Source of the DNA: Pseudomonadota bacterium
GTDB lineage: Bacteria; Bdellovibrionota_G; JALEGL01; DATDPG01
Reading direction: 5' to 3'
Length of the DNA: 64,000 nucleotides
Assembly (NCBI GenBank): GCA_043809315.1
Contig: JAZDDX010000016.1
Span: 1-64,000 of the forward strand
Positions 36-8,342 of this stretch are shown here, piece by piece (position 1 is the stretch's first letter; each line of letters starts with the position of its first letter). The position numbers and the translations under genes were made by a program. A model generated the notes under the pieces. That model searched no databases and had not been told where the DNA came from. It saw only the letters and a list, made by a program, of their open reading frames with translations.

Positions 36-80
36 GCAAAGCCCGTGAAAGCCGCCGCAGGCGGATGGCGCGGGCTTTGC
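36..80. terminator. Hairpin immediately after the stop of the minus-strand alternative recombinase tail (possible terminator/3' structure)
   Basis: GCAAAGCCCG (36-45) is the perfect reverse complement of CGGGCTTTGC (71-80), with an inner CCGCC-GCA-GGCGG stem (52-64); no clear U-tract. Confidence 0.45.
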
Positions 81-143
81 TCACTCATCCCCGTACTTTC
101 TCTTGAAAAACCTTCGAATTTCGGCCCAAACTGCACGCCAATT
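81..143 (-). other. Orphan coding segment: alternative C-terminus of the serine recombinase (NWRAVWAEIRRFFKRKYGDE*)
   Basis: Minus strand 143->81 translates NWR-AVWAEIRRFFKRKYGDE-TGA, in frame with the inverted copy of the recombinase 3' end (..AENRDPANWR). Confidence 0.6.
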
Positions 144-224
144 TGCCGGGTCGCGATTTTCGGCGACGGCCGACCACGGCAACCCATAGAAAAATTCAGC
201 GTTTTGCCCGCTCGGCGAAAGTTC
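135..224. repeat. Inverted repeat, left arm (partner 1694-1784)
   Basis: 135-194 is a perfect 60-bp reverse complement of 1725-1784; it extends to 224/1694 with a 1-nt indel in an A-run and 3 mismatches. Confidence 0.95.
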
Positions 225-278
225 CAAATCGCACGGGAGAAACCGCCCTCCCTTCGCGATTTTGTATGCTTTCGCCTA

Positions 279-310
279 CGAACCGTAGTTTCGGAGCAAT
301 TCCTTTTGTG
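279..310. repeat. Second, more diverged block of the inverted repeat (partner 1663-1694)
   Basis: 28/32 identity to the reverse complement of 1663-1694; separated from the first block by a 54-nt insertion (225-278). Confidence 0.85.
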
Positions 311-341
311 CTCTGCCCGAAGGCGATCTAACGTTGCGCGG

Positions 342-1925
342 ATGCCTCTTCGTTACTTTCTCTACGCTCGCAAATCATCCGATTCGGAAGAGCGACAGAT
401 CCTCTCGATCGAGGCTCAGCTCACTGAGACCCGAATCTTCGCCGAGCGAGAGCACCTGCAAATCGTGCGCGAATTCACCGAGGCAATGTCGGCGAAGGAC
501 CCCGGCCGCCCCGTTTTCAACGAAATGATTTCGCGAGTCGAGAAAGGGGAAGCCCAGGGAATCATCGCTTGGCACCCGGATCGCCTCGCGCGCAACTCGC
601 TCGACGGCGGCCGGATTATCTACCTCTTGGATCGCGGGCTCCTTCAAGCCCTAAAGTTTCCCACATTTTGGTTCGAGGCGACCCCGCAGGGGAAATTCAT
701 GCTCAACATCGCCTTCGGGCAGTCGAAATATTTCAGCGACAACCTTTCGGTCAACGTCAAGCGCGGCCTCCGCCAGAAACTTCGGAGAGGTGAATGGCCC
801 GCGGTAGCACCCTTGGGGTACGTCCACGACACAAAACTCCGAAAGGTTGTCTTCGATCCCCAGAAGAGCGCTTTGGTGCGCCGCCTTTTCGACGTGTACG
901 CCGCCGGCCGCGACTCTCTGGAGAGTTTAAGGCTCGAGGCCGAGCGGTGGGGGTTACAAACCCGGCGCAACCGCCCGCTCGTCAAAACTGAGGTCCAGAG
1001 GATCCTCTCCAACCCATTTTATTTCGGCCTCATGCGATTCGGCGGGGAGGTACACGAGGGAAACCACCCACCGCTCGTCAGCAAAGCCCTTTTCGAAAGG
1101 GTTCAGACACAAATGGCCAACCGCGGCCGGCCGCATACCCGTCGTCGCACCTACTTCCCTCTCCTTGGCCTCGCAACGTGCGACAGTTGCGGCTGCGCCA
1201 TCACGGCAGAGCAGCAGAAGGGGCACAACTACTACCGCTGCACCAAAAAACGCGGACCCTGTCCTGAGCCATACCTTCGAGAAGAATCATTTGCCGAACA
1301 GGTCCGCGCAGCTATTTCTCGCGTCGCTCTGCCAGAGCCGACCTACGCCGCCATGCTGGCACAACTGGCCAAGGAAGAAGACGAAGCAAGCCACCCCGTT
1401 GCAAGAAAGAGGGAAGAGGCTCGCGCGAAAATCCAAGCCATTCAATCCAAGCTCGATCAACTTCTCGACGCCCATTTAGCCAAGGCGGTCGATCGATCCG
1501 AATACCTGGCCAAGAAGGAATCGCTTCTCAATGAAAAGCTCCAAACGGAAGAGGCGCTCGCCCAACTGGAGCTGGGGGCAACGGGTTGGCTCGAACCGTG
1601 TCGCAACTTCCTCACGGCGGCGCACCGGGCCAACGAGCTCGTTCGGGACGGCGACATGGCGACCCAAAAGGAATTCCTCCGAAACTGCGGCTCGAACTTT
1701 CGCTTGGCGGGCAAAACGCTGAATTTTTTCTATGGGTTGCCGTGGTCGGCCGTCGCCGAAAATCGCGACCCGGCAAATTGGCGTCCCCGACGGGATTCGA
1801 ACCCGTGTTACCGCCGTGAAAGGGCGATGTCCTGGACCGGGCTAGACGACAGGGACGCGCTTGGTGAGCCGGGATGGGATCGAACCATCGACCCACAGAT
1901 TAAAAGTCTGTTGCTCTACCACTGA
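342..1925 (+). CDS. Large serine recombinase/integrase (resolvase + recombinase + zinc ribbon + coiled coil), 527 aa
   Basis: YARKSSD catalytic motif, DRLARN, LxNPFYxG, CDSC..YYRC..C zinc ribbon; ATG at 342 precedes the catalytic domain; the last 46 aa are antisense tRNA sequence. Confidence 0.93.
   Translation: MPLRYFLYARKSSDSEERQILSIEAQLTETRIFAEREHLQIVREFTEAMSAKDPGRPVFNEMISRVEKGEAQGIIAWHPDRLARNSLDGGRIIYLLDRGLLQALKFPTFWFEATPQGKFMLNIAFGQSKYFSDNLSVNVKRGLRQKLRRGEWPAVAPLGYVHDTKLRKVVFDPQKSALVRRLFDVYAAGRDSLESLRLEAERWGLQTRRNRPLVKTEVQRILSNPFYFGLMRFGGEVHEGNHPPLVSKALFERVQTQMANRGRPHTRRRTYFPLLGLATCDSCGCAITAEQQKGHNYYRCTKKRGPCPEPYLREESFAEQVRAAISRVALPEPTYAAMLAQLAKEEDEASHPVARKREEARAKIQAIQSKLDQLLDAHLAKAVDRSEYLAKKESLLNEKLQTEEALAQLELGATGWLEPCRNFLTAAHRANELVRDGDMATQKEFLRNCGSNFRLAGKTLNFFYGLPWSAVAENRDPANWRPRRDSNPCYRRERAMSWTGLDDRDALGEPGWDRTIDPQIKSLLLYH
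1694..1784. repeat. Inverted repeat, right arm; overlaps the recombinase 3' end and the last 6 nt of tRNA-Glu (att-like junction)
   Basis: Partner of 135-224; identity ends exactly at ACGCCA, the tRNA 3' terminus. Confidence 0.95.
1779..1856 (-). tRNA. tRNA-Glu(TTC)
   Basis: Minus strand GTCCCTG...CGGGGAC-G-CCA acceptor, anticodon loop CTTTCAC, T-loop GGTTCGAATCC. Confidence 0.96.
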
Positions 1926-1936
1926 GCTACCGGCCC
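1862..1936 (-). tRNA. tRNA-Lys(TTT)
   Basis: Minus strand GGGCCGGTAGCTCAGTGGTAGAGC, anticodon loop CTTTTAA, GGTTCGATCC, CCA end. Confidence 0.96.
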
Positions 1937-7391: not shown

Positions 7392-8342
7392 TTACGTCGG
7401 AACGTTGACGGCGTTGATCAGGGTATGGTCGATGAAGTAGGCGCGCAACTGTTCGGCGACCACAAGCGCCACGCGCTGCTGAGCTTCGTGTGTGGAAGCC
7501 CCCAGGTGCGGGGTCACGACCACGTTTTCGAGCCTCAGGAACGGGTGGTTCTTCGGCGGCGGTTCTTTCTCGAAGACGTCCACGGCGGCCGCTGCGACCT
7601 TCCCGCTCTTGAGCGCGGCGGCCAGCGCCTTCTCGTCGAGGAGAGCTCCTCGGGCGACATTCACGATCCGAACCCCGTCCTTCATCCGGGCGATCGTTTT
7701 CGCGTTGATGATCTTGCGGGTTTCTTTGTTAAGCGTCGCGTGGAGCGAGATGTAATCGGACCGTTTCCAGAGATCCGGGAGCGAGACCATCGAAACGCCG
7801 AGATCGCGCGCCACCGAAACCGGCACGTACGGGTCATTCGCGATGACGTCCATCTTGAGCCCCCGCGCGCACTGGGCAACCATCCGCCCGACGGTTCCGA
7901 GACCGATCAGGCCGAGCACCTTGTATCCAAGCTCAACGCCGGTGCACTTCTTCTTGTCCCAGATCCCTCGTTTGAGGGCGCAGTTCGCCTGCGGAATGTG
8001 ACGGGCGACCGAGATCATCATCCCGATCGTCAACTCCGCCACTGACACGGCGTTGGAGGAGGGGGTGTTCATGACGACGATCCCCTTCTTCGTCGCCGCG
8101 TCGACGTCGATGTTGTCGTACCCCATCCCGGCGCGCGCGACGACCTGGAGCTTCTTCCCCGCCTCGATCACCTTCCGGTCGACCTTCGTGGCGCTCCGGA
8201 CGACGAGCGCGTCGTAGTTGGCGACCGCTTTCAGGAGCTTCGGCTTCGCGAGCCCCTCGAAACGGTCGACGGTCGCTCCGGCGATCGCGCGGAGCGCGGT
8301 GAGCCCCTTTTCGGGGAGTGTATCGCAGACGAGAATTTTCAT
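7392..8342 (-). CDS. D-isomer 2-hydroxyacid dehydrogenase, SerA-like (no ACT domain)
   Basis: LVVRSATKV, RAGMGYDNID, GLGTVG, NVARG, DVFEKEPP, TPHLGAST. Confidence 0.88.
   Translation of the reverse strand: MKILVCDTLPEKGLTALRAIAGATVDRFEGLAKPKLLKAVANYDALVVRSATKVDRKVIEAGKKLQVVARAGMGYDNIDVDAATKKGIVVMNTPSSNAVSVAELTIGMMISVARHIPQANCALKRGIWDKKKCTGVELGYKVLGLIGLGTVGRMVAQCARGLKMDVIANDPYVPVSVARDLGVSMVSLPDLWKRSDYISLHATLNKETRKIINAKTIARMKDGVRIVNVARGALLDEKALAAALKSGKVAAAAVDVFEKEPPPKNHPFLRLENVVVTPHLGASTHEAQQRVALVVAEQLRAYFIDHTLINAVNVPT

Follow-up and report, generated by a model that had tools for sequence, protein, structure and literature searches.

The window, a 64,000-nt stretch forming the start of contig C16, opens with a recombinase gene that reads into tRNA genes (Table 1). 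The 527-aa reading frame described in the earlier note, running from the ATG at 342 to the stop at 1923-1925, was recovered, and the 46 residues that follow ..ANWR (codon ending at 1784) are indeed antisense tRNA sequence. The catalytic domain matches PF00239 (E = 1.5e-19, residues 6-152), and PF07508 and PF13408 also match the protein. Columns Y8, R10 and S12 are invariant among 31 aligned sequences, S12 being the catalytic serine. The recombinase profile matches the C-terminal structure of the A118 integrase (4kis, E = 3e-16), and a structure model of the homologue P0020 predicts two long helices (348-395 and 401-451). Judged by its domains, the gene product of 1-1925 is a large serine recombinase (LSR), a class characterized by a unidirectional attP × attB reaction that is reversed by a directionality factor. 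Its best protein match is 68% identical and its best metagenome relative 57% identical.

The gene lies within an inverted repeat. The arms (135-194 and 1725-1784) are 60 nt long and 100% complementary, and their identity stops 6 nt within the 3′ end of tRNA-Glu (ACGCCA, 135-140), both as first described. A perfect 60-nt match within 4 kb is far beyond chance. Past a 1-nt indel the repeat continues to 224/1694 (35 nt, 91%), and a second inward block (279-308/1665-1694; 30 nt, 90%) follows an insertion of ~54 nt in the left copy. The left copy in the window thus decays inward of the 60 nt; its outer 60 nt, the tail reading frame and the stem-loop are intact. The proposal that inversion would leave the tRNA gene and its 3′ trailer unchanged holds for the first 60 nt of the trailer and fails further inward, because there the left copy is out of frame, carries a stop codon and contains the 54-nt hairpin insertion.

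Table 1. Features of the integrase end of the window (positions of the whole stretch)
Feature	Position	Strand	Remarks
Stretch shared with contig C43	1..141	.	Base-for-base equal to the start of C43 (k = 141 graph overlap); fork right after ACGCCAA
Stem-loop right after the tail stop	36..80	-	P′ flank (T), duplicated at the third site
P′ arm	81..134	-	Native-type C-terminal tail AVWAEIRRFFKRKYGDE and stop (81-83)
tRNA T-arm-like motif AATTCGAAGG	111..120	-	CGAAG begins 18 nt outward of the junction, P-type spacing
Left arm	135..194	-	Matches the final 60 nt of the integrase core ORF perfectly in inverse orientation; supplies the P arm of the putative spare attP
Core ACGCCAA	135..141	.	Common to the inverted attP, the C43 junction and the tRNA junction
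Degenerate inward part of left copy	195..308	-	1-nt deletion, stop codon, 54-nt insertion (225-278) folding as a hairpin
Leader before the ATG	309..341	+	Bases 313-327 complement 708-722, within the recombinase gene, without a mismatch
Large serine recombinase core, 481 aa	342..1784	+	Resolvase, Recombinase and Zn_ribbon_recom domains
Right arm	1725..1784	+	P arm of the attR-type junction, within the 3′ end of the recombinase gene
tRNA-Glu(ttc)	1779..1856	-	B′ side of the site; T-loop CGAAC at 1798-1802 (+ strand), 13 nt from the junction, B-type spacing
46 codons and stop	1785..1925	+	Antisense tRNA-Glu and tRNA-Lys; C-terminus probably gained on integration
tRNA-Lys(ttt)	1862..1936	-	Next host gene

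Reading the minus strand through the left arm gives ..FFYGLPWSAVAENRDPANWRAVWAEIRRFFKRKYGDE, with the stop at 81-83; beyond the arm it encodes the tail AVWAEIRRFFKRKYGDE, followed by a hairpin, in agreement with the earlier description. The stem-loop pairs 36-56 with 60-80 (RNA fold -29.3 kcal/mol, z = -3.1). The suggestion that this 17-aa tail is of the native C-terminal type was borne out in the family: ..IRT(F/Y)F tails are conserved in relatives, the motif and its stop usually come after the left copy in family loci, and native-type tails end ~13 of the best 120 homologues. In the native-tail homologue P0020 the tail is predicted, at modest confidence (block pLDDT 62-77), to form a terminal helix (residues 496-513). 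Of 98 tails, 94 use CGA for the arginine of the motif, a codon that makes up 20% of arginine codons in gene bodies. This codon bias suggests that conservation of the tail reflects, at least partly, a constraint on the DNA rather than on the protein.

The motif [CT]GAA[CTG] lies 18 nt from the junction in P′ versus 13 nt in B′, in the window as in the family. Among 110 loci examined, 76 of the 90 having both motifs show this offset of +5, which applies to P′ versus B′ only; the P arm had no occurrence of the motif in any of the 110 loci. By the published rule, DBD2 motifs lie 5 bp nearer the centre in attB than in attP (PMC11722253). Since the T-arm-like motif lies 5 nt further out in the left site, matching this rule, the left site appears to be a true attP, and its description as an intact, inverted attP-type site (P-core-P′) adjoining a P-core-tRNA junction stands. 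Three junction types are found in the genome: T joined to P (81-194), P joined to tRNA (1725-1790) and T joined to other DNA (C43:1-160). All have a 7-nt core in common, ACGCCAA, which must contain the crossover. Three-way cores are ≤9 nt in 51 of 52 relatives, commonly 4-6 nt, and do not fix the crossover dinucleotide. The perfect arms, at 60-170 nt, are far longer than a half-site requires; this, like the inward decay of the left copy, counts against the island model set out below.

The third of these junctions links the window to a second contig. Many contig ends in the assembly overlap by 141 nt, so that the fork between C16 and C43 is a graph junction; it could instead reflect two strains. 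Within the bin, bases 1-141 open C16 and C43 and occur nowhere else, and inverted-repeat ends were found on none of the contigs. By its sequence the start of C43 is a third site, attL-like, at which the tail is joined to other DNA. It would be the direct-orientation partner that had been thought missing and, with relatives bearing cargo between such a site and the inverted attP, it leaves the idea of a cargo-free module unsupported. Among the 93 relatives whose left flank reaches at least 600 nt, 58 repeat the tail flank in inverted form on the far side of the cargo, 0.6-8.9 kb further left. Junctions of the attL and attR types bound cargo beside an intact tRNA gene in relatives, and among this cargo are type I R-M systems and a small HTH_3 regulator. 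None of the 10 ORFs scanned in C43:142-8000 encodes an integrase, and a search for the empty site with C43:142-1641 gave one weak 89-nt match in 30 related genomes (31 including G000).

The architecture is not unique to this contig. An upstream inverted copy was present in 139 of 166 loci examined, drawn from many phyla and from different assemblers (the record titles show contig names of SPAdes, MEGAHIT and other types) and including L020, titled a complete genome. Because the layout recurs so widely, three of the four objections that the earlier note had foreseen do not hold. Counted from the junction, the arms match perfectly over a median of 87 nt across family loci. A gradient of arm identity arising from gene conversion was considered; no clear gradient was seen, most arms being simply perfect. 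In the assemblies, which give the majority orientation only, the gene reads into the tRNA at 90 loci and is flipped at one (L151, where tRNA-Leu abuts the upstream copy), with a further 48 having the repeat but being unclassifiable. The polarity of the cargo is also fixed, as 77 of 80 locus pairs with shared cargo DNA match in direct orientation only. Relatives on viral contigs numbered only 5. In the literature searched, mostly at the level of listings and abstracts, neither a natural inverted second attP nor a tRNA-targeting family of this kind was found described, although the layout is common to well over a hundred related islands.

Considered together, four findings demonstrated above (junctions of three types, a layout common across the family, half-site motifs offset by 5 nt and a tail constrained at the DNA level) favour a model, to which we give a probability of roughly 0.8, in which 1-1925 is the integrase end of an island at the 3′ end of tRNA-Glu that keeps an inverted spare attP and has a third site at C43. 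A tRNA-targeting LSR would have placed the island there. Since the island's attP lies within the integrase gene, at its 3′ end, integration would have replaced the native 17-aa tail by codons of antisense tRNA, and the resulting attR would be the P-B′ junction at 1784/1785. The left arm, tail and hairpin (36-194) would constitute a second complete attP (P′-P), inverted and ~150-200 nt upstream of the gene, and the start of C43 would be attL (B-P′). The cargo would lie between attL and the spare attP, with the tail flank repeated in inverted form on either side; it would have collapsed during assembly at k = 141 and is absent from the bin. The enzyme probably reads the T-arm-like motif in both P′ and the tRNA, its position 5 nt further out in P′ distinguishing a P-type from a B-type half-site.

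Several consequences would follow. Excision by attL × attR would release a circular form bearing a pair of attP sites in inverted orientation, the resting state would be the gene reading into the tRNA, and the spare attP may be a reserve 3′ end and site. Rare inversion with attR, either site-specific or RecA-driven, could restore the full-length gene, and the spare attP may also act as an operator upstream of it. Two equivalent attP sites in the free circle would be expected to give both orientations of the gene, counter to the 90 versus 1 observed. Canonical LSRs do not recombine attP × attR or attP × attP (PMC11722253), and on that account the spare attP has no established job.

The earlier note had favoured a self-flipping switch, in which the integrase inverts 135-1784 between the spare attP and attR and so toggles between tRNA-reading and native forms, setting activity or directionality; we regard this as doubtful. 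Flipping is geometrically possible, though unproven. The core is common to both sites in inverted orientation, so that inversion is chemically allowed, and a crossover between the arms would give, as predicted, an in-frame protein of 498 aa with the conserved tail and stem-loop. The terminal helix modelled at modest confidence in P0020, the native-type tails among the best 120 homologues and the flipped arrangement of L151 are consistent with such a switch, and arms that are perfect in most loci are what continued recombination would produce. Against it stand the 90 unflipped loci versus one flipped, a count of majority orientations in which rare flipping is invisible, and the fixed polarity of the cargo. 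Moreover, a DNA half-site largely accounts for the conservation of the tail, and attP × attR is not among the known LSR reactions (PMC11722253). An inverton has two equivalent full inverted sites; here the sites are not equivalent, since arm identity is confined to the inner side and core, the outer halves being tail (P′) and tRNA (B′). Only tentatively can the spare inverted attP be viewed as a built-in device for flipping the integrase gene, an on/off phase switch for island mobility. On this view the resting gene would read into the tRNA, lack its native tail and terminator and face antisense read-through from the tRNA promoter, and rare inversion with attR would restore a full-length gene downstream of that promoter. 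If true, a switch conserved across hundreds of lineages would commit a minority of the cells to excision and transfer.

That the gene and its two inverted P arms form an autonomous IS-like cassette, inserting between T-arm-like half-sites independently of the cargo, is unlikely. While one subfamily does show varied outer flanks, namely tail/tRNA, tail/second tail (L053, L056, L162) and tRNA/tail (L151), a circular form would require a long perfect palindrome as its site, the duplicated tail flank surrounds the cargo in the 58 of 93 loci noted above, and no free form was seen in plasmid, phage or viral collections. Still less probable, and already disfavoured, is a left copy that is the functionless, decaying remnant of a second inverted element or gene copy: the frameshift, 54-nt insertion and stop of the window copy would suit decay, yet all lie inward of an outer 60 nt that is intact together with the tail ORF and stem-loop, and a copy placed likewise is present in 139 of 166 loci across many phyla and assemblers, L020 included, whereas random remnants would not be expected to hold one position, one orientation and perfect arms. 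Least likely of all is a chimeric inverted join made by the assembler. The feature does open a contig at which the graph forks, but its 60 nt of perfect repeat fall short of k = 141 and were traversed with unique k-mers; the left copy and the gene also part ways inward of those 60 nt, and the layout recurs in independent assemblies.

The family can be set beside several known systems. With the large serine integrases of phages and islands (Listeria A118/LI Int, SPbeta SprA, phiC31, Bxb1) it shares the order of its domains (catalytic, recombinase, then a zinc ribbon with coiled coil), a short crossover core and P-type and B-type half-sites offset by 5 bp. It differs from them in that its attP lies within the 3′ end of its own gene, it targets the 3′ ends of many tRNAs with a P′ that mimics the T-arm, its P arm lacks the motif (0 in 110 loci) and the integrated element here keeps a second intact, inverted attP; identity to any phage or plasmid record is only ~25-30%, with none above ~30%. 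The Hin and Gin switches use small invertases, two full identical sites and an enhancer. As in those switches, inverted sites enclose a serine recombinase gene, and inverting the enclosed DNA would alter the expressed product, but the enzyme here is an LSR, the sites share one arm and the core only, and the two orientations are not seen at comparable frequency. SSV-type archaeal integrases are tyrosine recombinases with attP inside int, whose gene is split in two; here, too, integration would alter the integrase coding sequence, although the exchange is limited to the final ~17 codons and the element retains a spare copy of that end. The res site of Tn3/gamma-delta is a multi-subsite resolution site in direct repeat, which the putative binding site directly upstream of this serine recombinase gene resembles in its position and possible autoregulation. 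In the yeast 2-micron plasmid, the tyrosine recombinase FLP acts at FRT, flipping a replicating plasmid for copy amplification. The predicted free circle would likewise be divided by two inverted sites into two segments, but it has no known replication function, and canonical LSRs do not recombine attP × attP (PMC11722253).

In this family the recombination site has left its mark on the coding sequence that holds it. Serine integrases are prized for genome engineering, and the rules for their sites were worked out on a handful of phage enzymes. Natural attP/attB pairs number in the hundreds in this family, with tRNA 3′ ends as targets that the sequence itself reveals, and these pairs independently support the 5-bp half-site rule. 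Its conserved second, inverted attP is without a role in the current LSR model; if it is a flip switch or an operator, it would represent a new mode of control by a mobile element over its own integrase.

All elements described in the earlier note (the repeat, the tRNA-Glu, the 527-aa ORF, the tail and the hairpin) are present in the window, the first 64 kb of C16, one of 44 contigs of a 2.42-Mb genome. The large serine recombinase (LSR) gene reads antisense into tRNA-Glu, whose position shows that the repeat stops 6 nt within the tRNA 3′ end, and the last 46 residues of the protein are translated antisense tRNA. Read on the minus strand, the left arm encodes a tail, ..ANWRAVWAEIRRFFKRKYGDE*, followed by a stem-loop. 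Pairwise alignment of the left copy with the gene 3′ end revealed a 1-nt deletion and an insertion of ~54 nt in the left copy. The inner part of this spare copy has decayed (frameshift, stop, 54-nt hairpin insertion), while its outer 60 nt remain intact, as do the tail ORF and the stem-loop. Separately, the leader just before the ATG is perfectly complementary over 15 nt to the conserved IAFGQSK motif region of the gene, and the two segments could form a long-range RNA pairing.

Coordinates of the recombinase locus in the window
Feature	Position	Strand	Details
Stem-loop after tail stop	36-80		-29.3 kcal/mol, z -3.1
Tail stop codon	81-83	minus	read from left arm
Inverted repeat, perfect	135-194 / 1725-1784		60 nt; repeat search of window
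Inverted repeat, degenerate	to 224 / 1694		91%
Inverted repeat, degenerate	279-308 / 1665-1694		90%
Complementary segments	313-327 / 708-722		leader / coding
LSR gene	342-1925	plus	ATG 342; 527 aa; Resolvase, Recombinase, Zn_ribbon_recom
tRNA-Glu(ttc)	1779-1856	minus	ARAGORN
tRNA-Lys(ttt)	1862-1936	minus	ARAGORN

Relatives of the LSR protein number in the thousands (7914 of 8000 scored candidates). Most C-termini of the best 120 homologues are antisense-tRNA peptides (e.g. ..NWRRGRDSNPRY), and about 13 are tail-type, like ..WSVADEIRTYFESQVKKI. Loci were compared from species-representative genomes (80; 593 of 596 candidate stretches confirmed), metagenomes (80; 586 of 600) and viral contigs (5), with an inverted copy scored when at least 30 nt of the gene 3′ end lay upstream of the gene. 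Such a copy was found in 139 of 166 loci, the window included, with a perfect run from the junction of median 87 nt (range 4-172); most of the 27 loci with no repeat are without the flank needed to show one. In the gene frame on the minus strand, the left copies continue into a conserved tail, ..L(D/N/E)(K/E)IRT(F/Y/H)F.., then a stop. The recurrence of copy and motif therefore makes architecture and tail family traits, and the earlier note was right to regard the tail as native. The layout occurs across different assemblers and in L020, a record titled complete genome. Most relatives belong to small AT-rich Patescibacteria, the window's host not being among them, and the nearest loci (L005-L007, L087) share 55-57% identity.

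In 90 of the 139 repeat-bearing loci, the 3′ end of an antisense tRNA is no more than 15 nt away from the right junction, the targets including Ala, Pro, Gln, Arg, Asn, Ser, Asp, Leu, Glu, Val, Tyr and Gly tRNAs. A single locus, L151, is flipped: at 191-1870 it has a sense tRNA-Leu next to the upstream inverted copy, and a tail-type flank at the end of the gene. The remaining 48 show neither arrangement, with contigs ending at the repeat or tRNAs uncalled, and at least 6 of them carry a second tail-like flank instead of a tRNA. In L053, L056 and L162 (also L015, L139, L160) this flank differs from the first and bears its motif at the P-type distance, placing the cassette between two attP-type outer halves; these loci could be tandem elements or insertions into another element's attL. 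Five homologues (P0023, P0029, P0037, P0051, P0060; ~40% identity) are nearly twice the usual length, at ~905-916 aa, and may be fused or extended family forms. Many contigs, among them those of L009, L012, L013, L019, L031, L042 and L078, begin within the upstream copy and overlap by 55, 76, 88, 99, 125 or 141 nt, several of which are close to common assembler k-mer sizes; it seems that short-read assemblies of these islands fail systematically at the nested inverted repeats.

A motif resembling the antisense tRNA T-loop, [CT]GAA[CTG], is present in the outer flank of the left site. Across 110 loci with both flanks, the distance of this motif from the junction peaked at 18 nt in the tail flank and at 13 nt in the tRNA flank, as in the window itself, and the motif never occurred in the inner arm (P, the gene 3′ end). 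Of the 90 loci having both motifs, 76 showed an offset of +5, as did 70 of the 78 with a called tRNA. According to PMC11722253, the DBD2 motifs of attB lie 5 bp nearer the centre than those of attP, and this difference is what tells the two sites apart. The +5 offset matches that rule, and this half-site geometry makes the left site a genuine attP, as the earlier note had suggested.

One DNA word, read in different frames, encodes the conserved IRT of the tail and the DSNP of the tRNA read-through, and the motif arginine codon is CGA in 94 of 98 tails versus 20% (589 of 2953) of gene-body arginine codons. Much of the tail conservation is therefore DNA constraint. AlphaFold2 placed the tail of the native-tail homologue P0020 (mean pLDDT 83) in a terminal helix with modest confidence; the tail may also have a protein role.

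A third site emerged at the contig edge. The start of C43, another contig of the genome, is identical to the window over 141 bases, the two splitting immediately past the core ACGCCAA. Exact 141-nt overlaps join many contig ends of this assembly and mark junctions of a de Bruijn graph built with k = 141. The fork therefore indicates that the tail-and-hairpin flank (T, or P′) is joined both to the inverted P arm (C16) and to unrelated DNA (C43), two joins that refer to this genome or population. ACGCCAA is the sole stretch common to the T/P, P/tRNA and T/other junctions. No further copy of T or of the gene was found in the contigs of the genome bin, from which the contig left of position 1 is missing. 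Further along C43, the tRNA-Glu 3′ end recurs as a perfect 22-nt copy (7998-8019, L172; ..GAATCCCGTCGGGGACGCCAA) in direct orientation with the gene and tRNA gene, ~7.9 kb from the attL-type junction; the copy may be the far boundary of an older island, suggested to lie between it and the present element. The intervening genes encode a TPR protein, an FGE-sulfatase domain protein, a weak AbiEii match and a methyltransferase, and a scan of 10 ORFs found no integrase.

Among the 93 loci whose left flank spans 600 nt or more, 58 have an inverted copy of the outer flank (tail plus stem-loop), mostly 100% identical, 0.6-8.9 kb further left (median spacing 1.3 kb). As read from these sequences, the relatives' layout is B/P′ - cargo - P′/P (inverted) - leader - gene - P/B′ (tRNA); for the window, the C16/C43 fork predicts exactly this order. 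The core common to all three sites does not exceed 9 nt in 51 of 52 loci and usually measures 4 or 6 nt, which fits a serine recombinase. The cargo includes type I restriction-modification systems (L011, L036), a DndA/SspA-like desulfurase fused to a methyltransferase (L017) and, in the closest relatives L006 and L007, proteins without Pfam matches; a ~70-aa HTH_3 protein is encoded near the inverted attP in 16 of the 58 loci. Of the earlier interpretation, the attP and native tail stand, but the "cargo-free" module does not, given the third site and the relatives' cargo.

Next to the inverted attP, on the side of its tail flank, L010 (9710-9800) carries a mosaic of 20-28-nt perfect inverted gene pieces, as do L016, L021, L027, L028, L040, L041, L051, L053, L054, L057, L063, L080 and L084 at the same position. 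The pieces, not collinear with the gene, derive from codons ~47-53, from the IGSNF motif just before the repeat (including a T-arm-like TCGAAC) and from ~23 nt over the ribosome-binding region and ATG; they are possibly fold-back RNA controls or accessory binding sites.

The core is common to both sites and inverted between them, so inversion is chemically allowed, and its predicted product is an in-frame 498-aa native-type protein. Ongoing exchange finds some favour in the arms, perfect in most loci and far longer than a half-site, and in L151, where the flipped arrangement is present. However, assemblies hold 90 unflipped loci against 1 flipped, and the cargo keeps a fixed polarity with respect to the gene, 77 of 80 cargo-sharing locus pairs matching in direct orientation only; these comparative data argue against a freely toggling switch. 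Nor would a 90:1 bias be expected of a free circle able to dock via either of two identical attP sites. A possible reason for the bias is that tRNA read-through would be antisense to the integrase in the common orientation, whereas flipping would put the integrase under the tRNA promoter. An attP × attR reaction is not known. PMC11722253 reports that a pair of attP sites can form a synapse, probably without recombining. A flip switch is unproven and, on comparative grounds, disfavoured as a frequent event.

In the literature searched in full text, neither a natural second inverted attP nor this tRNA-targeting family was found described. The feature belongs with the serine-integrase islands, a known class.
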